Below are positions 3,752 through 59,848 of a stretch of DNA of 64,000 bases, one piece after another. The position numbers were made by a program, and so were the translations under genes. The notes under the pieces were generated by a model. The model was not told the DNA's origin and did no database searches. It saw only the letters and a list, made by a program, of their open reading frames with translations. This stretch comes from Patescibacteria group bacterium (lineage in GTDB: Bacteria; Patescibacteriota; Minisyncoccia; Phycocordibacterales; SBAW01): contig JAGWOD010000002.1 of the NCBI GenBank assembly GCA_028871115.1, forward strand, positions 2,144 to 66,143. The letters run 5' to 3'. The stretch's first letter is position 1. Every line of letters begins with the position of its first letter.

Positions 3752-4951
3752 TCAGTGGAGCTTCGGCAAAAGACTCCAGAGACGGGGATCTTCCCGACCA
3801 TCGATTTTGAAGATTGCGACACCTCGCACGCCCAAGGTCTCTGCGAGATAGAGCTTATCGCCAATTGCACCTGCATCGCTCCACCAGACGATATTGAAAG
3901 ATGAAGCCGTGGAAGCAGTTGAGGAAGTGTTGGAGTATGTCGTTGTCGCATTCTGAAGCGAGGTGGTTGGGGTGATATCAGGAGTAGTGTCGGTCATAGA
4001 CGTCGGGGTATAGGTAAAGCTCAACTCTCCTGCGGAATTGCGTGTCGGAGTTATCCCGAGAGATTGAGCGAGCGCTGTTGCGTAATCCGGATCGAAGGCC
4101 CATTGTAGATTGTATTGGTAGCCCTCTTGGAGCGGAACCACTTGATATTCGTAGCCGTAGGTTGCGACACCGATCTCAATTTTTCGCCTCGAAATACTCT
4201 GCGCGGCGAGATTTACGACCGCGCTTACCCATTGTGGATCGGCAATAGGCATATACAGGCCCTGCTGCGCTTCGTTGAGTTTGACGTCCACAGTGTCTTG
4301 ATCGTAGGTCATGAGGCTAACCCGGTCACAGTACTTATTAATGGCAGTGAAATCATTGGCATACTCTGTGGCATCGGCAGGTGGAGTTCCATCATAGCGG
4401 TCTGAGACCGGGGTGCGTGCCTCGATAGTACACACTACCCATTTATTGCCCATACGAGCATAGAGGCCTTTGAGAAAGAGGGAGAAGTAGTTCTTGTCCT
4501 GAGCCTCTTTACCCTCAAAATCAATATCAATGCCGTTGAAGTTTTGTTGAAACGCGAGGGTGGCGATAGTTTTCTCGAGCGCGATGCGCGAGGTGGTATT
4601 GCTGAGGATATTGTTGATGGCCGTGGTGTCGCTCCACATGACGGTCGGCACCACGAGTACACCTTTCGCCTTAGCAGCCGCTATGAGCGTCGACCAGGGC
4701 GGAGAGTCAATGCCCATAGGATCGTAGAGCGTACCATCCGGCTGCACAATATATCCGAATGGGTTTATCTCGGAGAGATAATTGAGGTGCGCGAGTGCGT
4801 CCGCAGTGCCGGTTGCAGAGCTCCAATACGGGATCCATGCGGAAACCTCAAGCGCGGGAGATTTGCTGACACTCGCGGCCTGAGATATCGCAGGCGCTAG
4901 AAACATTACAAGAGCAGCAAATGAAAAGAGAGCAGCCAAGAGAGAGCGCAT
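3752..4951 (-). CDS. secreted glycoside hydrolase family 18-like protein with Ser/Thr-rich linker
   Basis: Signal peptide MRSLLAALFSFAALVMFLAPAISQA. NGIDIDFEG matches the GH18 DGxDxDWE catalytic motif (with N and F substitutions). A Thr/Ser-rich insert lies near the C-terminus. Confidence 0.6.
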   Translation of the reverse strand: MRSLLAALFSFAALVMFLAPAISQAASVSKSPALEVSAWIPYWSSATGTADALAHLNYLSEINPFGYIVQPDGTLYDPMGIDSPPWSTLIAAAKAKGVLVVPTVMWSDTTAINNILSNTTSRIALEKTIATLAFQQNFNGIDIDFEGKEAQDKNYFSLFLKGLYARMGNKWVVCTIEARTPVSDRYDGTPPADATEYANDFTAINKYCDRVSLMTYDQDTVDVKLNEAQQGLYMPIADPQWVSAVVNLAAQSISRRKIEIGVATYGYEYQVVPLQEGYQYNLQWAFDPDYATALAQSLGITPTRNSAGELSFTYTPTSMTDTTPDITPTTSLQNATTTYSNTSSTASTASSFNIVWWSDAGAIGDKLYLAETLGVRGVAIFKIDGREDPRLWSLLPKLH

Positions 4952-7348: not shown

Positions 7349-9133
7349 CTACGCATTTCGGTCGCGCATATTCTTAGTGAGTATTTGTTTACGCAGACGC
7401 ACGGACTTCGGCGTGATTTCGAGGTATTCATCTTCATTCATCACCTCGAGCCCGCGCTCTATCGTGAGTAAAAATGGCGGCACAAGCTGTATAGACTCGT
7501 CGGAGCCCGACGCACGCATGTTCGTGAGCTGCTTCCCTTTTGTCGGATTGACATACATTTCCTCGCCCTTGGAGGTATTGCCAATAACCATTCCTTCATA
7601 GATTTCAGTACCGGGGCCGATGTAGAGCACGCCGCGCTCTTGCAAATTCCACAGGGCAAACCCTAAAGCCTTACCATTCATCATGGAAACCATAGATCCC
7701 ACTGCGCGTCGTGTGATATCCCCCGCGTAGGGGCGAAACTCAATAAAGCGCGAAGAAAAAATACCTTCGCCTTTGGTATCAAGAACAAATTGGCTCCGAT
7801 ACCCCAAGAGTCCGCGAGAAGGTCCTTCTAATGTGAGCCGCAGGGACCCATCATGGTGTTTAATATCTTTCAGTACTATTTTTCGCGATCCGAGGCGCTC
7901 GATGATGGCACCCTGGTAGGCGCTCGGGATATCGATAATAACTTCTTCAAACGGCTCAAGTCGCTCGCCGTTCTCTCCGCTATGAAAAATAACCTGCGGT
8001 TGCGAAACCTGGCACTCATACCCTTCACGACGCATATGCTCAAGCAAAATCGAAATATGAAGCTCTCCACGGCCGCTTACCTTGAAGGCTTCGGCTTGGG
8101 AGAAATCTATTTTAAGACCGACATTGACCTGAAGTTCGCGCTCAAGTCGCTCGCGCAGCTGGCGTGAAGTGACAAACTTTCCTTCACGACCGGCAAAGGG
8201 AGAACTGTTCACCAAAAAATTAAGGGTAATCGTCGGTTCATCTACCGCAATGGCAGGCAATAATGTAACCTCGGCGCTCCTTGCTATGGTGTCACCAATG
8301 TCAATGTCACCGAGTCCCGCTATGAGCACAATGTCTCCAGCAACCGCTTCAGAGACTTCCACACGCTCAAGCCCCAAGAACGAAAATAGTTTTGTCACCT
8401 TCGCGCGACGCGGCTCATGGGTGGTACTCATAACAAACACCTGCTCACCCGTTGCAATTTTTCCTTCATACAAACGCGCCACCGCGAGACGGCCAAGAAA
8501 ATTATCGTACCCAAGATTAAACGGCTGCGCGCGCAGGAGCTTCTTCTCCAACTCTGGAGAAGACGCAGAAGGGACATGCTCGTAAATCGTCTCAAGAAGC
8601 GGTGTCAGATCCTTCGAAGCATCTTCGAGCCGTCGCTTGGCAATGCCTTCGCGGCCAATCGCGTAGACAACCGGAAAATTACTTTGCTCGTCGTTAGCAC
8701 CAAGCTCCAAAAAAAGCTCAAGCACCTGTTCCTCGCAGCGCTTAGGATCGGCCGCAGGCTTGTCTATTTTATTGATAATAACGATAGGACGAAGCCCAAG
8801 CTCCAAGGACTTCTTTAAGACGAAACGCGTCTGCGGCATCGGACCCTCTTGGGCATCGACAACAAGGAGCACGCAGTCAATAGAGCGCAGTACCCGCTCG
8901 ACTTCAGAGCCGAAGTCGGCATGACCGGGCGTATCAACGATGTTTATCTTTGTATTGCGATACTCAACTGCCGCATTTTTCGCATAAATCGTAATACCAC
9001 GCTCACGTTCAAGATCATTTGAATCCATCGAGACGCCTTCCTTCGTGACGCCACACTGGCGCAAGAGCGCATCAGTAAGGGTCGTCTTACCGTGGTCGAC
9101 GTGGGCGATAATAGCGATATTCCGTATCTCCAT
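7349..9133 (-). CDS. typA: translational GTPase TypA/BipA
   Basis: AHVDHGKTTL G1 motif, DTPGHADF and NKIDK motifs. Length is 594 aa with EF-G-like C-terminal domains. Confidence 0.95.
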   Translation of the reverse strand: MEIRNIAIIAHVDHGKTTLTDALLRQCGVTKEGVSMDSNDLERERGITIYAKNAAVEYRNTKINIVDTPGHADFGSEVERVLRSIDCVLLVVDAQEGPMPQTRFVLKKSLELGLRPIVIINKIDKPAADPKRCEEQVLELFLELGANDEQSNFPVVYAIGREGIAKRRLEDASKDLTPLLETIYEHVPSASSPELEKKLLRAQPFNLGYDNFLGRLAVARLYEGKIATGEQVFVMSTTHEPRRAKVTKLFSFLGLERVEVSEAVAGDIVLIAGLGDIDIGDTIARSAEVTLLPAIAVDEPTITLNFLVNSSPFAGREGKFVTSRQLRERLERELQVNVGLKIDFSQAEAFKVSGRGELHISILLEHMRREGYECQVSQPQVIFHSGENGERLEPFEEVIIDIPSAYQGAIIERLGSRKIVLKDIKHHDGSLRLTLEGPSRGLLGYRSQFVLDTKGEGIFSSRFIEFRPYAGDITRRAVGSMVSMMNGKALGFALWNLQERGVLYIGPGTEIYEGMVIGNTSKGEEMYVNPTKGKQLTNMRASGSDESIQLVPPFLLTIERGLEVMNEDEYLEITPKSVRLRKQILTKNMRDRNA

Positions 9134-9267: not shown

Positions 9268-10380
9268 CTAGGACCAGCGAAAAACACGGAACGCTATGAC
9301 GTAGATAACTACCGTCCATACGAGTAGCAACCCGAGCTGCGGGCCGATATCGGTGAGATGTTTCCCTTGTGTAGCTATCATGCGCAAGCCATCGATGATG
9401 GGCGTGAGCGGAAAATAGGTCGAGATGCCCTGAAGCCACCCCGGCATGAGAAAGCGCGGGAAGAATGTCCCGGAGAGAAACATCATTGGAAAGACGATGA
9501 TGTTTGAGAGCGGCGCAGCCTGGCTTTGATCTTTTGCCCAGCCGCCGACCGCAAGCCCTATCCCCAACATCGTGATGATGGAAAGAATGAGATAGACAAA
9601 CAGCTCAAAATAATTACCCACCACTTGTAAATGGAAAATTAATATCGCACATAAAAACATTGCTGCGATAGTGAGAAGCCCCACTGCGCACTGCGAGAGC
9701 GCGGTAGCCACAAAATATTGCCAGACCTTAAGCGGGGTGGTCTCGAGCCGGCGCAAGACCCCCTGTTTTTTTAGCTCAGGGAAAATATTGACCGGTCCGA
9801 ATATGCCAATGCCTAAGAGCGCAAAACCAAGTAGCCCAGCAAACGTGTAGTCAAAAGAGGTAAGTCCCTGGGTGCCTGTCTCTTGCACCGAGACACCAAA
9901 GGGCATTGCGGTCGTGACGAATTGCCCATTAAGGGGCTGTAGCGCCGCCTGAATCACTGACTCAAGGGCTTGGGCCTCCTGTGCATTGGTGTAGGGATAA
10001 TAAATGACCGCTGCTCCGCTGGGGGTTGAAGAACCTGCGGCAGTTTGCCCGAAGCTTGCGGGCAACACTACCGCGGCATCGAGAGTGCCGTTGGCCATCT
10101 GTACTTGAGCATCGCTGAGCGTCGTTATCTTCGTATTTATTTTAAAGACGCTGACGCTAGCGAGATTTGTGCTCATCTGTGCAGCTATAGGACTTTGAGA
10201 TTCGTTTATAAGCGCAATGTTGAAGGATATGTTGTTACCGGCGTTGCCAAAGATACCCCCGAGCACAAACAGAATGATGAGGGGAAACAGCAGACCAAAG
10301 AAAATCGCCACGCGATTGCGAAAAAAACGTTTCGTATTGACATAGGCGAATACAAAAACAGTGTATAGAGATTGTTTCAT
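9268..10380 (-). CDS. ABC-2 type transporter permease
   Basis: 370 aa with an N-terminal TM, a large extracytoplasmic loop and five C-terminal TMs. It sits directly downstream of an ABC ATPase. Confidence 0.75.
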   Translation of the reverse strand: MKQSLYTVFVFAYVNTKRFFRNRVAIFFGLLFPLIILFVLGGIFGNAGNNISFNIALINESQSPIAAQMSTNLASVSVFKINTKITTLSDAQVQMANGTLDAAVVLPASFGQTAAGSSTPSGAAVIYYPYTNAQEAQALESVIQAALQPLNGQFVTTAMPFGVSVQETGTQGLTSFDYTFAGLLGFALLGIGIFGPVNIFPELKKQGVLRRLETTPLKVWQYFVATALSQCAVGLLTIAAMFLCAILIFHLQVVGNYFELFVYLILSIITMLGIGLAVGGWAKDQSQAAPLSNIIVFPMMFLSGTFFPRFLMPGWLQGISTYFPLTPIIDGLRMIATQGKHLTDIGPQLGLLLVWTVVIYVIAFRVFRWS

Positions 10381-12010: not shown

Positions 12011-12322
12011 TTATTGAACTGCTTTGATAACCGTCCGCACTAATTCATCTTGAACATTGGGTCTAAAGTATACAGTCCTACCTTCTTTCTCACGTATAAC
12101 CAATTTTGTGACCTCAAGTATTTTGAGATGCTGCGAAGCAAGAGACATGGAGATACCAAATGTGCGCGAGACGTCACTGACACAGAGTCGATCGCGCTTA
12201 AGGAAGCTGCGGAATATCTTGCAGCGACGCGGGTCACCCAAAGCACTGAAGACAATCGGCAGACGATGGTCTTCGCGCTTTAAAAGTGACTGCAATTTTT
12301 GTATTTCCTTAGGATTCAGCAT
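12011..12322 (-). CDS. ArsR/SmtB family transcriptional regulator
   Basis: HTH region VSDVSRTFGISMSLASQHLKILEVTKLV and the typical 103-aa length. Confidence 0.8.
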   Translation of the reverse strand: MLNPKEIQKLQSLLKREDHRLPIVFSALGDPRRCKIFRSFLKRDRLCVSDVSRTFGISMSLASQHLKILEVTKLVIREKEGRTVYFRPNVQDELVRTVIKAVQ

Positions 12323-12333
12323 TACCTCTTATC

Positions 12334-12756
12334 TTACATGCTCTCTTTAACAAGTTTTAGCTGTTCTACGGCAACAGTGAGTTCCGCGAGTGCTAGGGCT
12401 CCAACGGCAAGCAATAGATCTCGTATAGCAATATCGATATAGCCGAGCATCAGAAGATTAATCGCTATAAGGACCAACCATACGACAGAAAGATACCCGC
12501 CAATGCGTGGCCATTTAGTAACTAACATAATAGCTACTACTATCTCGACCACACCCATAGCACCCAAAAAGACACCAGTACTTACTGGTAAGTAACTCGC
12601 GACCAAGGGGCTAATATATTTTGGCCAGAACACAATAAAGTCTGTACCCAAGAGCTTATCTAGCCCTGCCAATAGGAGCACTGCGCCATATGCATAGCGA
12701 AGTACGTTCCATGAAAACACTACCCTCTTTGTTCCTTCCATACAATTTAAATACAT
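12334..12756 (-). CDS. DoxX family membrane protein
   Basis: 140 aa with four TM helices and an LAGLDKLLG start typical of DoxX. Confidence 0.7.
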   Translation of the reverse strand: MYLNCMEGTKRVVFSWNVLRYAYGAVLLLAGLDKLLGTDFIVFWPKYISPLVASYLPVSTGVFLGAMGVVEIVVAIMLVTKWPRIGGYLSVVWLVLIAINLLMLGYIDIAIRDLLLAVGALALAELTVAVEQLKLVKESM

Positions 12757-12893: not shown

Positions 12894-13313
12894 TCAGCTA
12901 ATCGTACTCTCGAGAGGCCGCCGCTTTTCTCTAGCCTCACACCAGCTAGACAAGTGGTCAACCTGGAGGCCACAACCTTGAGCCTCTTCAAAAATCGCAT
13001 GATGGAACTCATGCATCGAGTCGAGGGCCCAGCCGAACGTCTCGGGAAGGAATGCGTCGCTGTTGTATCTTTCAGTCAGATTCCTAAGACCTTTCTTAGT
13101 CATTGCCGCACAGAAGTCGAACAAGTTGGTGTACGACAACTCTTGGTCAGCGAGCGCTTTCCAACCAGGATCTTCCCTGCCGAAGTAGATCACACGCGAG
13201 GTACAATGCGCGTCTTTGTAACGATCCATGTAACCGCAGGCCGAATCTGTCCTTCCCGTCCGTTCGATACGGCGGCGGAGCTTTTCGAAAAACTCTCCAA
13301 AGGTGGAGACCAT
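12894..13313 (-). CDS. hypothetical protein with HEXXH-type motif (HEFHH)
   Basis: 139-aa ORF whose composition is more protein-like than the overlapping + strand ORF 12891..13358. An HEXXH motif sits near the C-terminus. A strong GC hairpin follows the stop directly. Confidence 0.35.
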   Translation of the reverse strand: MVSTFGEFFEKLRRRIERTGRTDSACGYMDRYKDAHCTSRVIYFGREDPGWKALADQELSYTNLFDFCAAMTKKGLRNLTERYNSDAFLPETFGWALDSMHEFHHAIFEEAQGCGLQVDHLSSWCEAREKRRPLESTIS

Positions 13314-13465
13314 GTAAACGTACTCCTTGGTTATTTCTATTTTGACTGTACCATATAGAAACTAAAAACGATTGTTGGCCTCCTCGGTCTCGTACTTTTC
13401 CCAGTGCAACCCTGTAAGGCTTTTCTGATGCTTTTAATCTATCATTTCAACGCTTCTCGGAATAG

Positions 13466-13945
13466 TCACGGATTGTAAGAAAATAAATTTCCTGGGTCAG
13501 TAATTGCTTTTGTTGAAAAGCAAACAAAATTTCCAAAACTTTCTAACATACCTGTATTATCAACTTCTTGAGCCCACCCTGAATATAGGGTGCATGAAGA
13601 AAATATGTTGTTTTTCCACTCTATAGAACCTGTAATTTGAGTTGCTGGAGCGTGCGTAATAACAAAATTAAAAGAAGATTTATATGGAGATCCTTCAGGA
13701 GTTAAAGGTAAGCCTGTGCTAGTTGAATTGAGAAAGGATACGGAATAATTAAAAGAAGGGGCTGGAAATTGATTTGCGTTTACGATATTTCCGTTCCCTT
13801 GGATTTGTACTGCGCCAGGAGAATCTTTTAAGTTTTGCGGGGCATATTTGGTGCCGCTCACAAATATCCAACCCCCTACAGTCAGAAGTACCGTTACAAC
13901 TATTCCAACTATGGTAATCTTTTGATTCTTTGAAAAGCTTATCAT
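13466..13945 (-). CDS. hypothetical membrane-anchored extracytoplasmic protein (low-GC island)
   Basis: N-terminal TM (ITIVGIVVTVLLTVGGWIFV), then an Asn/Ser-rich soluble domain. The DNA is AT-rich relative to its flanks. Confidence 0.45.
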   Translation of the reverse strand: MISFSKNQKITIVGIVVTVLLTVGGWIFVSGTKYAPQNLKDSPGAVQIQGNGNIVNANQFPAPSFNYSVSFLNSTSTGLPLTPEGSPYKSSFNFVITHAPATQITGSIEWKNNIFSSCTLYSGWAQEVDNTGMLESFGNFVCFSTKAITDPGNLFSYNP

Positions 13946-13982
13946 GCTCCTCGAAGTTCGAACCTATCTCAAACTGGCTGGC

Positions 13983-13993
13983 CGTCTCGAGAC
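13983..13993. repeat. partial third copy (CGTCTCGAG) embedded in the perfect palindrome GTCTCGAGAC
   Basis: Seen in the sequence, in the same intergenic region as copy A. Confidence 0.5.
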
Positions 13994-14050
13994 CGAACCA
14001 TCGTCAACTTTACCCTACTTGATGGAATAGCTACATTTTACACTTTCCAA

Positions 14051-14067
14051 ACGACGCGTCTCGAGCG
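14051..14067. repeat. 17-bp direct repeat copy A (ACGACGCGTCTCGAGCG), 7 nt downstream of the membrane-protein gene
   Basis: Matches 15491..15507 at 16 of 17 positions. It contains an ACGCGT and a CTCGAG palindrome. Confidence 0.7.
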
Positions 14068-14073
14068 CAGATT

Positions 14074-14805
14074 TTATTGACTTGTTCCAAATTTTTTGAA
14101 ATTTACTCCAGTCTCTTGCTTCATTTTTTCAACTCCTTTATTTAGCTCGATTATTTCTCCCTGTATCTCATCTTCAGAGATTGTGAAATCCCAATCAGTA
14201 CAAAAGAGAGTGCAGAGGATACGATTCTGTCCATCAATTTTTCTCAAGTAGATTCTTGTCGTTGCAAGCAATCGCAACATCCAAGTATCTATACGTCCTT
14301 CAATTGCAGCAGAAATCTCTCCTAAAGAACGAGCTAAATAGTCGATACTCTCTGGAGCAAGCGTTCGATTTGCAAGTTTTGCATCCTCAAATCTAGTCAG
14401 CGCACGATTTTTGGCGGCGAAATCCTCATTCAGACGAGTAATAGAACGACTATAGAAATTATATTTATTGATAATATCTATACTTGCCAATTCCATCAAA
14501 ATATCCGTATCCAATCTGAGTAATTTAAATCTATAATCCGTTACTGCATTTGCTTCCACGATTTTTTTCGTATCGTCCGCGTGTATTTTCGCAATGAGCA
14601 GCTCGTCGGCATGCTCATGCATAAGACGTTCCAGTTTTATTAATGCATTGCGATGCCTGACAAATTTCTCCCGCTTCTTTGTGTAATAAAAAGTTATAAG
14701 TCCAAATATAAAAGCAAAGAATGCTCCAAGAAACGGACCCCAGAATAAGGAGCTAGTCGTGGCACTCCCATCTACTTGTACAAAATGATGGAAATGTGAG
14801 TACAT
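14074..14805 (-). CDS. hypothetical single-pass membrane protein with cytoplasmic alpha-helical domain (partner of the GIY-YIG gene)
   Basis: TM at residues about 20-42 (FWGPFLGAFFAFIFGLITFYY), then a charged helical domain. The DNA is low GC. The stop lies 3 nt before the start region of the upstream gene, implying an operon. Confidence 0.5.
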   Translation of the reverse strand: MYSHFHHFVQVDGSATTSSLFWGPFLGAFFAFIFGLITFYYTKKREKFVRHRNALIKLERLMHEHADELLIAKIHADDTKKIVEANAVTDYRFKLLRLDTDILMELASIDIINKYNFYSRSITRLNEDFAAKNRALTRFEDAKLANRTLAPESIDYLARSLGEISAAIEGRIDTWMLRLLATTRIYLRKIDGQNRILCTLFCTDWDFTISEDEIQGEIIELNKGVEKMKQETGVNFKKFGTSQ

Positions 14806-14808
14806 AAT

Positions 14809-15456
14809 TTATTTAACCTTCGGATTATCTAGTACGTCACCCTCCTCAAGACGTATACGACGGTCGTCCAAAATCTCTCCATGGTATTTCCAATAGGCAG
14901 GACCTTGCTCTAACCACTTACTCCCGAGTGCAATCTGGGCAGCCCTCGAAAGGGACATGGTTTCGTCTTGAAATTCAACATGCTTAAAATCTGGTGCTAC
15001 GCGGCAAGTAACATTTTCGTCACGCGTAAATGTAAGTATTGCTCCGGGTGAAATATCAACCATCTTAAAATTGAAAGCGGCTCGTCTTTCTCGTGCTTCT
15101 TTTATAGCAGCTGCATCCTCCTTAGATTCAATTCCGGCATCACGTGACGGGGTGACTTCTTCCAGACCGATGTATTTTAAAAACGCGATTGCACGCTCTG
15201 GGGCGAGAATAAAAAATTCTCTTTTGGGATTTTTCCTATGGTCATCAAAGGCTTCGTGAAGCGCTTTCTCTGCGGCATCCATGTCAGCGACGCGCACGGC
15301 ATAGACGCATTCGAATGGCAGCGGCACCGAAGTCGTTCGCGATAACTCCAAGACTCTTTGTTCCACTGAGGTAGTTGTCTTTCCAATTTTTATATACCCT
15401 GGCATCGCCTCATTTACGAGGACATATATGATGCCTTGATTTTTTATGTCTGCCAT
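14809..15456 (-). CDS. GIY-YIG / T5orf172-domain nuclease-like protein with C-terminal DUF4357
   Basis: The N-terminus GIIYVLVNEAMPGYIKIGKTT...VEQRVLEL...PFECVY...REFF fits the T5orf172/GIY-YIG core. The C-terminal FNFKMVDISPGAILTF...GPAYWKYHG resembles DUF4357. Start is set at MADIKNQ (15456) because the longer ORF-track start runs through tRNA-Gln. Confidence 0.7.
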   Translation of the reverse strand: MADIKNQGIIYVLVNEAMPGYIKIGKTTTSVEQRVLELSRTTSVPLPFECVYAVRVADMDAAEKALHEAFDDHRKNPKREFFILAPERAIAFLKYIGLEEVTPSRDAGIESKEDAAAIKEARERRAAFNFKMVDISPGAILTFTRDENVTCRVAPDFKHVEFQDETMSLSRAAQIALGSKWLEQGPAYWKYHGEILDDRRIRLEEGDVLDNPKVK

Positions 15457-15490
15457 AATTGGATCGTATCGCTTGGTAATAGCATTGTAG

Positions 15491-15507
15491 ACAACGCGTC
15501 TCGAGCG
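15491..15507. repeat. 17-bp direct repeat copy B (ACAACGCGTCTCGAGCG) between the GIY-YIG gene start and tRNA-Gln
   Basis: Its 14-nt core ACGCGTCTCGAGCG is identical to 14054..14067. Together with copy A it brackets the two-gene module. Confidence 0.7.
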
Positions 15508-15528
15508 GGATAACCTATCACGACTTGG

Positions 15529-15599
15529 CTGCCGGGCTTGGACTCGAACCAAGATAAACGGATCCAGAGTCCGTTGTCCTACCATTAGACGACCCGGCA
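15529..15599 (-). tRNA. tRNA-Gln (anticodon CTG)
   Basis: Manual fold gives acceptor TGCCGGG/CCCGGCA with U1-A72, D-stem GTCT/GGAC, anticodon stem ACGGA/TCCGT with loop CTCTGGA, and T-arm CTTGG-TTCGAGT-CCAAG. Confidence 0.8.
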
Positions 15600-15641
15600 A
15601 TACAGGGAAACGATAGCTGAAATCACCTAAAATCTCAACTA

Positions 15642-16088
15642 TTAGCCGGTGATAGAATCAAAATCTTTGAGTATCTGCGGAGCGTGAACAGCCGGATCAA
15701 CCTTTGGATATGTTTTTTGTATAACTCCTTTGGAGTCAATAAGGAAGGAAATGCGTTTAGTGAAAAGTCCTCCTGCAGCGCCATAGGCTTTGACTACCTT
15801 CCCTTCCGGATCAGCCAGAAGCGTGAATGGAAGGTTATATTTCTCCTCAAATTTTTTATGACTCTCAACCGAGTCCTTACTCACGCCAAAGACCGTGATG
15901 CCTCGCTTCTTGTATTCGTCCCACGCGTCGCGTATGCCGCAGGCTTCCTTAGTGCAGCCCGAAGTATCATCCTTGGGATAGAAATAGAGGAGAACAAAAC
16001 GCCCTCGCTCGCTCGAGAGCGAGTGCAACGCGCCGTTTTGATCAGGCAGCGAGAAATCGGGTGCTTCTTCTCCTTCTTTAACCATCAT
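15642..16088 (-). CDS. bcp: peroxiredoxin Bcp (thiol peroxidase, AhpC/TSA family)
   Basis: FYPKDDTSGCTKEAC peroxidatic-Cys motif; 148 aa. Confidence 0.9.
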   Translation of the reverse strand: MMVKEGEEAPDFSLPDQNGALHSLSSERGRFVLLYFYPKDDTSGCTKEACGIRDAWDEYKKRGITVFGVSKDSVESHKKFEEKYNLPFTLLADPEGKVVKAYGAAGGLFTKRISFLIDSKGVIQKTYPKVDPAVHAPQILKDFDSITG

Positions 16089-16094
16089 GTAAAG

Positions 16095-17774
16095 CTAGCG
16101 CTGCGCAGCTGAAGCTTCCGTTAACGATACGGAGTGTATAGAGGCTTTTTCCTCTGCCGCACGCATAAATCCGACAAAGAGCGGGTGCGGCGAGAGTGGC
16201 CGGGCAAGGAATTCTGGATGGAACTGAGTCCCGAGAAAGAACGGATGAACGTCTTTGGGAAGTTCTGCTATTTCCATAAGCACTCCATCAGGAGAGGTAC
16301 CTGAGAAGACAAGGCCGGCTTTTTGAATCTGCGGCATGAAGCGCGGATTCACTTCGTAGCGATGACGATGGCGTTCCGAAATTTCCTTTTTCCCGTAAGC
16401 CTTCCCCGCAATACTCCCCTCTTTGAGAACACACGGATAGGAACCCAGACGCATCGTTCCACCGTAGCGGCTCTCCGCGACATTTTTTCTCTGACTCTCC
16501 ATGATAGCGATGACAGGATAGGAAGTTTTTTCATCAATCTCGGTTGTATGAGCGCCCGAGAGTCCAGCAACGTTGCGCGCATATTCAACAACCATAAGTT
16601 GCATACCATAGCAGAGGCCGAAATAGGGAATCTTATTTTCTCGCGCATAGCGGATGACTTTGAGCTTCCCTTCGATGCCCGTCTCGCCAAATCCTCCGGG
16701 GATAAGAATGCCCCCGTAGGCATCAAGCGTCGAGAGCGGAAGCTTCCCCGATTCGAAATCCTTGGAATTAAGGTACGTGAGCCGAGGCTTGGCATTGAGG
16801 TGGTACGCCGCGCCCTTGAGCGCTTCAAGGACTGAGATATAGACATCGGAGAGAACAAAGCTCCCCGAATCAAAGTACTTCCCTACGATGGCAATATCGA
16901 TGACTGAAGCGCCGTTGTGGGAGCGCTCTGCAAAGGCTTCCCAGTCGGAGAGTTCCGCGCTGCGCTTTGGGAGGTCGAGTACTTTTTCAAGGATATCGCC
17001 AAGCCCATCTTTCTCGTAATTGAGCGGCACATCGTAAATACTTTCAACATCCGGCGCCGAGATAACCCGCTCGGGCAAGATATTACAAAAGACCGCTATC
17101 TTTTCCTTTCGTTTGGTGTCAATCGGCACTGTGGCGCGTGCAAGAATAATATCTGCCTGGAGTCCCACAGAGTTGAGTGTGCGTGCCGCATACTGCGTGG
17201 GTTTGGTCTTCATCTCCCCAATGTTGTGGGGAATAGGCACGTAGGAGACCATGACAACCGCTACATCGCGCGGGAACTCTTGCTTGAGCATGCGAGCGGC
17301 TTCAAGAAATATGATGTTCTGATATTCACCAATCGTCCCCCCTATCTCGATGAGGGTCACATCGGCCTTTGAAGCGGCCTGAGCAGCAGTGATGCGGCGC
17401 AGGACCTCAAGCGGAATATCGGGAACCACTTCGACGTTCTTGCCTTTGTATTCGAGATTGCGCTCGCGCTCGATGACGCTGAGATACACGCGTCCTGTGG
17501 TCATGTAATTGATCTCGGGGAGCGACTCATCGAGGAAGCGCTCGTAGTTGCCCATATCCTGATCCGTCTCGTATCCATCCTCGAGTACGAAGACTTCCCC
17601 GTGCTCCGTCGGGTTCATAGTTCCCGCGTCGACGTTGATATAAGGATCTATCTTTATGGCCGTTACCCTGAGGCCTTTGGATTTGAGGATTCGTCCGATG
17701 GCCGAGGTGGCGATACCTTTGCCGATGCCACTCATGACCCCGCCTACGACGAATATGTATTTGGGCTGCGCCAT
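16095..17774 (-). CDS. pyrG: CTP synthase
   Basis: N-terminal synthetase domain MAQPKYIFVVGGVMSGIGKG and C-terminal glutamine amidotransferase domain (GLCYGMQ). Confidence 0.95.
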   Translation of the reverse strand: MAQPKYIFVVGGVMSGIGKGIATSAIGRILKSKGLRVTAIKIDPYINVDAGTMNPTEHGEVFVLEDGYETDQDMGNYERFLDESLPEINYMTTGRVYLSVIERERNLEYKGKNVEVVPDIPLEVLRRITAAQAASKADVTLIEIGGTIGEYQNIIFLEAARMLKQEFPRDVAVVMVSYVPIPHNIGEMKTKPTQYAARTLNSVGLQADIILARATVPIDTKRKEKIAVFCNILPERVISAPDVESIYDVPLNYEKDGLGDILEKVLDLPKRSAELSDWEAFAERSHNGASVIDIAIVGKYFDSGSFVLSDVYISVLEALKGAAYHLNAKPRLTYLNSKDFESGKLPLSTLDAYGGILIPGGFGETGIEGKLKVIRYARENKIPYFGLCYGMQLMVVEYARNVAGLSGAHTTEIDEKTSYPVIAIMESQRKNVAESRYGGTMRLGSYPCVLKEGSIAGKAYGKKEISERHRHRYEVNPRFMPQIQKAGLVFSGTSPDGVLMEIAELPKDVHPFFLGTQFHPEFLARPLSPHPLFVGFMRAAEEKASIHSVSLTEASAAQR

Positions 17775-58850: not shown

Positions 58851-59339
58851 CTATGGTCTGATGCAGTAGTAGTAATTAGGACTCTGTGAGCAATCAACGC
58901 CTCCTATTGTTCCCGTCGTTACTGAACCGTTAAGAATAGAAACGTTATCGTTTTCAAGTTGGACACGAAGTACATAGCTTGGGCACGGAGTACTGCTACA
59001 TGTAGAACTAGTCGATGCAACGCTTGCGAGCGCTTGATATGCATAGGCATAGCTGCCGCCCTCCGGATCCGCAGGCATTGCGGCAATGTAGTTAGGAACC
59101 AAATAGGAAGTGAGCGCGGAGTAGGAAGCGACTGCCGGATAGGTAGCAAAATCGTTGTTGTAGAGTTCAAGGGCCGTACGCACTTCCTGAATATCTGAAA
59201 CACGGCGTGCATCGCGGCTTTTGCTGCGAGCGGTGTTGAGGGAGGCGAGAATGATGGACGCGAGAATCGCGATAATAGCGATGACGACGAGCAATTCGAT
59301 GAGGGTGAAACCCCGGGCCTTCTTCATGGCTATGCGCAT
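58851..59339 (-). CDS. pilA: type IV major pilin (PilA-like), copy 1
   Basis: KARGFTLIELLVVIAIIAILASIILASL class III signal and N-terminal helix; 162 aa; C-terminal Cys pair. Confidence 0.8.
   Translation of the reverse strand: MRIAMKKARGFTLIELLVVIAIIAILASIILASLNTARSKSRDARRVSDIQEVRTALELYNNDFATYPAVASYSALTSYLVPNYIAAMPADPEGGSYAYAYQALASVASTSSTCSSTPCPSYVLRVQLENDNVSILNGSVTTGTIGGVDCSQSPNYYYCIRP
59193..59321. repeat. 129-bp exact direct repeat (copy 1) shared between the tandem pilA genes; second copy at 59708..59836
   Basis: The two stretches are identical at the DNA level. They encode the conserved N-terminal pilin helix. Confidence 0.85.
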
Positions 59340-59362: not shown

Positions 59363-59848
59363 TTATGGACGCACACAGTAATAATAATTTCCAGTGCAGG
59401 TGATCCCCGTTACCGTTGTGCTAGCGCTACCCGCAAGAACATTCGCATTATTGTTTTCAAGATCTGTCTGGAGTACGTAACTGGGACACACCCCGCTAGT
59501 ACATAGGCTGGGAGTCACTGAGGAACTGGAGAGCGAAGCGTACAGATACACGTAAGTGCCGCTATTGGTTGGGTCCGAGGGCATTGCGGATATATAGTTG
59601 GGCACCAGGGCGCTCGAGAGCGCGCTGATGTTGCTTGCTGCACTCACGGAAGGATAGCCGTTGTTATCGTTATTGTAGAGCTCAAGCGCGAGGGCTACTT
59701 GTTGGAGATCTGAAACACGGCGTGCATCGCGGCTTTTGCTGCGAGCGGTGTTGAGGGAGGCGAGAATGATGGACGCGAGAATCGCGATAATAGCGATGAC
59801 GACGAGCAATTCGATGAGGGTGAAACCCCGGGCCTTGAAGTTACGCAT
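59363..59848 (-). CDS. pilA: type IV major pilin (PilA-like), copy 2
   Basis: The N-terminal helix is identical to copy 1 and the C-terminal globular domain has diverged; 161 aa. Confidence 0.8.
   Translation of the reverse strand: MRNFKARGFTLIELLVVIAIIAILASIILASLNTARSKSRDARRVSDLQQVALALELYNNDNNGYPSVSAASNISALSSALVPNYISAMPSDPTNSGTYVYLYASLSSSSVTPSLCTSGVCPSYVLQTDLENNNANVLAGSASTTVTGITCTGNYYYCVRP

Follow-up and report, generated by a model that had tools for sequence, protein, structure and literature searches.

R and r, two direct repeats at a Patescibacteria tRNA-Gln gene, as probable attachment-site components of a non-autonomous integrative element

Introduction

A 64,000-nucleotide stretch of a Patescibacteria group bacterium genome (GenBank assembly GCA_028871115.1, contig JAGWOD010000002.1, positions 2,144 to 66,143; hereafter the window) carries, downstream of a tRNA-Gln(CTG) gene, two protein-coding genes bracketed by two near-identical 17-mers, R and r. 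All genes of the region lie on the minus strand, and the order is tRNA-Gln, a trailer segment D, R, a GIY-YIG gene, a gene for a 243-aa membrane protein and r (Table 1). R ends 34 nt upstream of the ATG of the GIY-YIG gene (15456), and r starts 6 nt past the stop codon of the 243-aa gene (14074), a bracketing as tight as the first-pass annotation of this DNA had described. Read directly from the sequence, the two 17-mers lie where that annotation placed them, in direct orientation and 1440 bp apart, and match at 16 of 17 positions with an identical 14-nt core; the sole mismatch falls at the cargo-side edge. The third, partial copy that it had reported, CGTCTCGAG, is likewise present within the palindrome GTCTCGAGAC at 13984–13993.

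The genomes of Patescibacteria are tiny, and the gain and loss of defence and resistance genes in these bacteria are poorly understood. To our knowledge, few mobile elements have been described for the group (the candidate phyla radiation, CPR). In this study, the locus was compared with other Patescibacteria contigs, in which each comparison locus or contig is labelled L plus a number (e.g. L088). We conclude that R and r are probably subterminal components of the attachment (att) sites of a non-autonomous integrative element that uses tRNA-Gln, rather than a target-site duplication and probably not operators. The conserved unit to which the repeats belong, the cargo that it frames, a mechanism of insertion and the competing explanations are described below.

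Table 1. Features of the tRNA-Gln locus in the window, listed from the tRNA outwards; the assignment to elements E1 and E2 and to att arms is proposed.
Feature	Position	Strand	Basis
tRNA-Gln(CTG), proposed integration target	15526..15599	-	ARAGORN; Rfam tRNA, 62.6 bits
CA + D (AGTCGTGATAGGTTATCC), probably element-derived, directly after the proposed crossover	15508..15527	-	Conservation of D in metagenomes
R, proximal 17-mer (ACAACGCGTCTCGAGCG; CGCTCGAGACGCGTTGT on the minus strand), last conserved block before the cargo	15491..15507	-	Sequence; repeats
Cargo gene 1: GIY-YIG-like T5orf172/MUG113 protein, 215 aa	14809..15456	-	Pfam; PADLOC
Cargo gene 2: predicted membrane-anchored protein, 243 aa	14074..14805	-	Hydrophobic N-terminal segment; no Pfam family
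r (ACGACGCGTCTCGAGCG; CGCTCGAGACGCGTCGT on the minus strand), first block of the proposed distal att arm r-X-ψ	14051..14067	-	nhmmer
X, conserved non-coding spacer of the proposed att arm, with a -10-like TAAAAT box	14002..14050	-	Alignments
ψ, 25-nt look-alike of the tRNA-Gln 3′ end (ATGGTTCGGTCTCGAGACGGCCAGC)	13977..14001	-	Repeat search; 22 aligned units
CA-D′-R″, proposed decayed left end of E2 (D′, GTTTGAGATAGGTTCGAA; R″, CTTCGAGGAGCATG)	13943..13976	-	Alignment with complete internal units
Proposed E2 cargo: 159-aa hypothetical protein, likely membrane-anchored (hydrophobic N-terminal segment), GC 0.37	13466..13945	-	
r2-X2-ψ2, proposed decayed distal att arm of E2, at the end of the low-GC tract	13372..13459	-	nhmmer

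A conserved unit at tRNA-Gln genes

The first-pass annotation had considered a motif of this length unlikely to recur by chance. Counted within the window, that argument does not hold: an exact 14-mer recurs within 2 kb in 32% of dinucleotide shuffles of the window, and two unrelated 14-mer pairs of the same kind are found in the window itself (7954/8140 and 23356/24756). Therefore, in-window statistics do not carry the claim, which stands instead on the motif being conserved at equivalent positions across many other contigs. The 14-mer has no further occurrence in the 64 kb, and in other contigs it is found at tRNA-Gln-type positions. That the repeats are a coincidence without function, as the shuffles would allow, is contradicted by the comparative data, in which the motif recurs with a conserved neighbourhood in dozens of independent contigs; this explanation deserves practically no weight.

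A metagenome search with the pattern CAGCCA, 18 free bases (N18) and CGCNCGAGACGCGT returned 87 stretches, of which 13 are GC-rich chance matches; the rest (~75) hold 76 units bearing D. Although D was left unspecified in the pattern, its 76 copies are >85% identical at most positions (consensus ACTCGTGMTAGGTTATCG). A called tRNA-Gln gene precedes 38 of the 76 units (24 CTG, 14 TTG), and others follow ψ-type ends such as ...CGAGACGGCCAGCCA, as is also seen in the window. R sits 18 nt after CAGCCA in the ~75 metagenome loci and in L088, exactly 18 nt downstream in L029 and L064, and ~70 nt downstream in L019. The tRNA-Gln gene of the window ends in ...GGCAGC followed by an encoded CA; CCA is encoded by two of the six tRNAs of the window. 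In relatives, 19 tRNA-Gln genes end in ...CAGC without CCA and run into an unrelated trailer and 13 encode CCA, and a D-like trailer is found only behind the latter (9/13 versus 0/19; Fisher p=2.5e-5). L029, L064 and L019 belong to the CCA-encoding group. tRNA-Gln genes without an element end in ...CAGC, with neither CCA nor D.

The far end of the cargo is equally constrained. R-like copies (r) lie 111–112 nt upstream of ψ-type D-R in nine units (L115, L134, L143, L159 twice, L166, L191, L197 and the window), the r-to-R spacing of the internal unit of the window being 111 nt, as in eight other units. A profile of r-X-ψ gave 27 good matches in 1.9 Mb of Patescibacteria loci, with one strong match in the window (14067–13971, E=1.7e-19). 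r is essentially always followed by X-ψ, and an alignment of 22 units shows ψ to be conserved. Array-terminal units break off at GGCCAGC, beyond which lies an unrelated AT-rich flank that resembles the trailers of unoccupied tRNA-Gln genes. As read from the alignments, the core motif is C-N-CGAGACG within CGCWCGAGACGCGT, and R, r and ψ each carry one copy. Judged by its sequence, the repeated unit is best described as r - X - ψ | CCA - D - R, a tRNA-Gln-derived module of ~125 bp that holds the motif three times. It was recovered from ~75 Patescibacteria metagenome contigs and several genomes, in every case in association with tRNA-Gln.

Several other identities were considered for these sequences. 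No conserved RNA fold was found for r-X-ψ in the 22 units (RNAalifold −2.6 kcal/mol, no covariation), and Rfam matched only tRNA at 13300–16200 of the window and in seven related loci. A structured RNA was rejected on these grounds, and r-X-ψ is therefore treated as a DNA-level site. A pseudoknot between D and R (CTCGTG with CACGAG) was dropped because changes at the variable base of R are not matched by changes in D. A group I intron in the tRNA was discarded, as no intron model matched; the known Patescibacteria introns are located at position 35/36 of tRNA-Asn and tRNA-Asp. An origin from a phage or plasmid was also set aside: scans of viral contigs gave chance matches in GC-rich phages or nothing, and BLAST returned nothing from plasmids and only tRNA-Gln from phages. 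The possibility that r-X is a decayed local copy of the tRNA-Gln promoter was rejected, as no R-like motif is present upstream of 79 tRNA-Gln genes.

Further arrangements were observed around tRNA-Gln in the comparison loci. A conserved structured stretch follows D-R in L115, L122, L127, L137, L147, L151, L177, L188 and others, extending ~125 nt past tRNA-Gln-CCA. In it R caps a hairpin with a covarying lower stem; next come another small hairpin (CTGC-TGAGA-GCAG) and, at the end, a rho-independent terminator rich in compensatory changes. The stretch has no Rfam match and could represent either a trailer of tRNA-Gln or a small RNA that the element brings with it. L019 contains a 47-nt direct repeat (9937–9983 and 13347–13393) in which R is fused directly to the tRNA-like GTTCGAGTCCCCGAGAGGGCAG. 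This compact variant of the unit brackets 3.4 kb with genes for an HD-domain protein, purD and two other genes, and each copy lies 30–50 nt upstream of a start codon. In L001 (10081–10130), L024, L034 and L043, a tRNA-Gln gene without CCA has, 24–40 nt beyond it, an incomplete second copy of itself that spans the region between the anticodon or T arm and the 3′ end; these copies look like scars of a different kind of element, which would make tRNA-Gln a general hotspot in the lineage. L206–L208 (e.g. L206 2743–2945) contain the only true tandem tRNA-Gln pair seen: both tRNA-Gln(TTG) genes are intact, each has a D-like trailer, and 131 nt separate them. A gene for a 70%-identical GIY-YIG protein follows directly, and the arrangement could represent the ancestor of the repeated unit or another form of it.

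Proposed elements E1 and E2 in the window

A repeat search aligned 13961–14000 with 15512–15551, comprising the final 26 nt of tRNA-Gln and 14 nt of trailer, at 70% identity over 40 nt; the duplicated tRNA 3′ end proper is ψ against 15528–15552. The GC content drops from ~0.51 to 0.37–0.45 between ~13400 and 15500, in the GC profile as well as gene by gene. The tRNA look-alike beyond r and the GC drop together are the signature of insertion at a tRNA gene, reaching past r. A cassette flanked by attachment-site repeats had been one suggestion of the first-pass annotation, and in essence it was right: a cargo element lies at tRNA-Gln, and L088 has the same repeats around partly different cargo. 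Its ends need to be moved, however, from 15507 and 14051 to ~15527 and 13977, with R and r just inside. A target-site duplication, another suggestion, is refuted by the presence of the same 14-mer at >70 independent loci with different cargo; what is duplicated from the target is the tRNA-Gln 3′ end. Membership of a transposon is not indicated either, since neither a transposase nor terminal inverted repeats were seen and the repeat is not set by the target.

The window probably contains two elements in tandem. E1 (13977–15527), which carries the GIY-YIG and 243-aa genes, would be the newest and well preserved one nearest the tRNA; its ψ holds the third motif copy and, within GGC-CA-GCC, the proposed crossover CA. 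E2 (~13372–13976) is likely to be a second, older and decayed element. Its R″ overlaps the start codon of the 159-aa gene, and its r2 starts 6 nt past the stop codon of the same gene; r2-X2-ψ2 was recovered by nhmmer at 15.9 bits (E=3.4e-6 with a relaxed profile in an 801-nt search). The decayed unit at 13372–13459 and the low GC of 13372–15527 fit two tandem elements. Like a tRNA-targeting island, E1 adjoins the tRNA 3′ end (from 15527) and has a distal tRNA repeat. It has no integrase of its own, and is therefore filed only as a non-autonomous relative of such islands.

Complete elements and their cargo

Pairing each D-R with the next r-X-ψ defined 17 complete elements, which are often arranged in tandem. 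Their cargo spans 249–4951 bp, mostly one to three genes co-oriented with the tRNA; in most of them the first open reading frame (ORF) begins 5–65 nt past R and r lies 0–15 nt past the last stop codon. The cargo includes GIY-YIG proteins, a C5 DNA methylase with a GHKL ATPase, DUF6602, a cyclodipeptide synthase, a serine hydrolase, an SRPBCC protein and, by sequence, a P-type ATPase; in other loci, CsoR- and DUF305-like genes are found repeatedly downstream of D-R. Motif searches, tblastn and, for the cargo proteins scanned, Pfam detected no recombinase in the 17 elements. In the window and in the predicted ORFs of the ~75 D-bearing loci, those of the cargo among them, searches for tyrosine-recombinase motifs and tblastn with the large serine recombinase were likewise negative, and an encoded recombinase was accordingly rejected for both window and cargo.

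Two loci share cargo with the window. In the 1.1-kb contig L088, the tRNA end-CCA-D-R is followed by a 78-aa ORF where the window has its GIY-YIG gene, then by a membrane-protein gene (87% identical) and an r identical to that of the window, beyond which lies a different X subtype. L200 has an 85%-identical GIY-YIG cargo, preceded only by a small ORF, between R and r-X-ψ in an array. On the other side, the order ftsE-ftsX-pyrG followed by tRNA-Gln is widely conserved, and nothing downstream of the tRNA is shared. The closest pyrG matches come from Paceibacterota/Adlerbacteria (73–76% identity), and exact-protein look-ups of two window proteins gave no match.

The 215-aa GIY-YIG protein matches Pfam T5orf172 (3e-16) and, over residues 5–205 of 215 and hence as a full-length family match, PADLOC PDC-S57 (PDLC05041, E=5.5e-70), which makes it a candidate single-gene phage-defence protein on the evidence of homology. 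Its family is large (1328 proteins at E<1e-20) and unusually conserved, the 120 best matches listed being 57–85% identical to the window protein. Homologues of 70–85% identity adjoin tRNA-Gln or lie in R/r-X-ψ arrays in four of five further contexts; a homologue is also found between type I restriction-modification (RM) and Gabija genes with no tRNA nearby. The ties to tRNA-Gln and the conservation of the family could be explained by intron-less homing, in which a free-standing GIY-YIG endonuclease cuts empty R/X platforms and break repair copies the cargo, with the flanks as homology arms; platforms without cargo, which do occur (see below), would serve as substrates. However, 15 of the 17 complete elements lack a GIY-YIG gene, the protein matches a defence-candidate family, and it also sits without a tRNA beside the type I RM and Gabija genes. 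Homing is accordingly rated very improbable.

The 243-aa protein, identical to NCBI KGJ34_00435, belongs to a family with only 21 members. Homologues in L083, L085 and L081 lie in a type III RM operon, in a type I operon with SMODS/SLATT and near a large serine recombinase, and the family may represent an undescribed defence-associated membrane effector. The two E1 genes were not retained as a conserved pair, as each occurs elsewhere without the other.

Copper- or metal-type genes are found just downstream of tRNA-Gln-CCA-D-R in L116, L126, L165, L115 and others; they comprise P-type ATPase, CsoR-, DUF305-, DsbA/DsbD- and DoxX-like genes, identified mostly by eye and in part by Pfam scans. The flank of the element in the window also encodes an ArsR-family regulator and a DoxX-like protein (12011–12756), with a slightly low GC of 0.44. 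Far from the locus, a 129-nt exact direct repeat (59193–59321 and 59708–59836) lies in two adjacent paralogous genes on the minus strand (58851–59339 and 59363–59848), which suggests a recent duplication or gene conversion.

Proposed mechanism and alternative explanations

The proposed insertion point of the element is the 3′ end of tRNA-Gln, in or close to the CA of ...GGCAGC. Exchange would take place between tRNA-Gln ...GGCAGC and an element r-X-ψ(...GGCCAGC)|CA-D-R, at or next to the shared CAGC, with the crossover at the CA of GGCCAGCC. This CA lies inside an imperfect dyad, CTCGAGACGGC-CA-GCCAACTCGTG, which the alignments show to be symmetric at 8 of 11 positions. The integrated product would read tRNA...CAGC|CA-D-R - cargo - r-X-ψ...CAGC|old flank, and repeated insertion would build tandem arrays with the newest element next to the tRNA. 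Such an exchange would explain why an occupied tRNA gains an encoded CCA and D-R, with ψ and the old flank kept at the far end, and why internal array units are complete and the unit nearest the tRNA is best preserved. R and r would act as accessory protein-binding sites that delimit the cargo. Transcription of the cargo may start at the tRNA promoter and read through, or start at the promoter-like r-X.

The recombinase would be supplied in trans, most likely by a large serine recombinase family found at tRNA-Gln sites. With its short identical core inside a dyad, the site is better suited to a serine than to a tyrosine recombinase. Members of one such family are encoded downstream of tRNA-Gln-CCA-D-R in L117, L137, L177 and L188, and also in L202, where a 3.9-kb element opens with a gene for a 75%-identical GIY-YIG protein and closes with the recombinase gene, whose 5′ end abuts a ...GGCAGCCA remnant. 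From these positions we infer that this family is a candidate mobiliser of the small elements.

Other features were noted around these recombinase genes. In L137, the recombinase gene is preceded, at a distance of ~20 nt, by an R-like site, TGCACGAGATGCAT (near oriented position 7968); this site is the same R variant as in L200 and hints at a link between motif and enzyme. A LOOT RNA (RF03000, 63.8 bits) at 4128–4241 of L188 adjoins the 5′ end of the recombinase gene. Beyond variable cargo, L188, L137 and L177 share a conserved block of the recombinase, two genes and a ParB-methyltransferase. In L202, a ~60-nt direct repeat (CCAACGCTCATCCTCGTCTCGTCCGGGCCACAGCAGCTGGATGCGCTTGACAGGGCAGTGT) at 7963–8025 and 8283–8345 lies just past the recombinase end of the element.

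Several observations weigh against this interpretation. The 64-kb window lacks a recombinase gene. With a shared core as short as CAGC, the position of the crossover is deduced from junction structure. The identity between ψ and the tRNA 3′ end is modest (~60–70%; ~60% over 25 nt). No pair of empty and occupied alleles was seen, the closest pyrG relative being 76% identical and without downstream synteny. R was required exactly by the metagenome search, and its conservation in those loci is thus partly by construction; L019, L029, L064, L088 and the r copies are its only independent support. Finally, tRNA-CCA-D-R is fused directly to X-ψ, with no cargo, in L148 and L169.

The cargo-less loci are those that an integron-like explanation accounts for directly, whereas the proposed mechanism needs a secondary deletion between R and r. 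In this alternative, tRNA-Gln-CCA-D-R-X-ψ is a resident platform, R is the crossover site, and circular cassettes made of cargo and one R are moved in trans, so that R and r correspond to attL and attR. L148 and L169 would then be the predicted empty platform, and the window minus 1440 bp (cargo and one R) indeed aligns with them across the junction. The cargo is packed tightly between R and r, as ORFs are between attC sites; the homology of the window to L088 stops at r, with differing X subtypes; and the only R/r mismatch lies at the cargo-side edge. However, cargoes in arrays are always separated by a whole r-X-ψ-CCA-D-R unit and never by a lone R, which means that integration of whole units at the tRNA end would still be needed; for this reason the integron-like explanation is ranked second. 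Nor does an IntI-like gene adjoin the tRNA, an attC-like fold was not found in the 22 units (RNAalifold serving as a proxy for single-strand folding), and the cargo-less form could also arise by deletion between direct repeats of 14–17 bp. As for membership of the integrons proper, the 17 elements do show co-oriented ORFs tightly bounded by recurring sites, but no intI or attI was found, the genes upstream of the tRNA being housekeeping genes (bcp and pyrG here; dnaX, prfB and dus elsewhere). Overall, we regard the integron-like explanation as possible but unlikely. Somewhat less likely still is a cassette-capture platform anchored at tRNA-Gln, comparable to an integron in its working but not in its construction, in which a tRNA-Gln-like ~111-bp unit would supply the 14-bp recombination site R, and integrase-less defence or resistance cassettes would be inserted, excised and shuffled at R by a serine recombinase acting in trans and expressed by read-through from the tRNA promoter.

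A regulatory role was also considered, in which R and r are operators or -35-type promoter elements for the downstream genes; shared operator sites had been proposed in the first-pass annotation. The GIY-YIG start codon lies 34 nt downstream of R, and that of the 159-aa gene ~105 nt downstream of r. r-X contains a promoter-like TCGAGA-18-TAAAAT (14064–14035), with the TAAAAT box in ~70% of X copies, and the motifs hold the palindromes CTCGAG and GACGCGTC. Promoter-like matches nevertheless occur at shuffle level (5 observed against 5.1 expected). In addition, r is defined by the end of the cargo before it and by X-ψ after it: it normally lies at cargo 3′ ends, is followed by non-coding sequence and by no shared kind of gene, and in terminal units r-X-ψ runs into unrelated flank. 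The motif occurs neither elsewhere in the window nor upstream of the 79 tRNA-Gln genes, and Pfam scans revealed no regulator gene that travels with it. The operator proposal thus finds little support and a regulatory role is improbable, although r-X may drive transcription across the junction. The placement of R and r in subterminal att sites of a tRNA-Gln element remains the explanation that we favour.

Relation to known systems

Site-specific non-autonomous cassettes, which depend on a recombinase in trans and build up tandem arrays, are represented by the ψSCC/SCC composite islands at rlmH, with the large serine recombinase Ccr, and by CIME/ICE accretion at conserved gene ends in streptococci; the remnants of tycheposons (see below) behave similarly. 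The elements described here resemble ψSCC/SCC of staphylococci and CIME/ICE in inserting at the 3′ end of one conserved gene, in lacking a recombinase, in their short conserved direct repeats, in the tandem order with the newest member by the target and in carrying defence or resistance cargo; the likely mobiliser here is, as with Ccr, a large serine recombinase. They differ in their tRNA target, much smaller size (0.4–5 kb), ~125-bp tRNA-Gln-like att unit with three motif copies and Patescibacteria hosts. Defence cargo on SCC-type arrays has been described (PMC11470126).

The tycheposons of Prochlorococcus are cargo elements at specific tRNA genes, with partial tRNA copies, tandem arrangement and variable islands; they are typically 10–20 kb, are defined by their own integrase and replication hallmark genes, and in a minority use large serine recombinases (bioRxiv 10.1101/2020.12.28.424599). 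tRNA targeting, partial tRNA copies and tandem arrangement are shared with the present elements, which have neither integrase nor hallmark genes and possess distinct conserved att arms. With integron cassettes they share short, mostly single-operon, co-oriented and tightly packed cargo that lacks mobility genes and is held in anchored arrays. In contrast to integrons, there is no IntI/attI and no attC-like folded palindrome, the units contain a look-alike of the tRNA 3′ end, and the anchor is a tRNA. P4-like tRNA islands and prophages, which use a tyrosine integrase, likewise have a tRNA 3′-end site, a distal tRNA repeat and deviating GC; here, however, the element has no integrase, junction identity is ~4–6 nt, and conserved arms with a repeated motif are present on both sides. 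No description of the r-X-ψ|CCA-D-R unit was found in the literature searched.

Biological significance

The insertion site is recognisable by tRNA-Gln followed by CCA-D-R and by r-X-ψ at the far end, and the cassettes that it receives are very small and devoid of mobility genes. Cargo at this site includes the GIY-YIG defence candidate, RM-like methylase/ATPase pairs, a cyclodipeptide synthase and copper-resistance operons. The 125-bp unit offers a search handle for cataloguing flexible genes in Patescibacteria, and it provides defined DNA substrates for the candidate large serine recombinase, a class of enzyme in which new specificities are useful in genome engineering. With the same end sequences framing many cargo genes, the system looks like a widespread way for Patescibacteria to swap defence genes.

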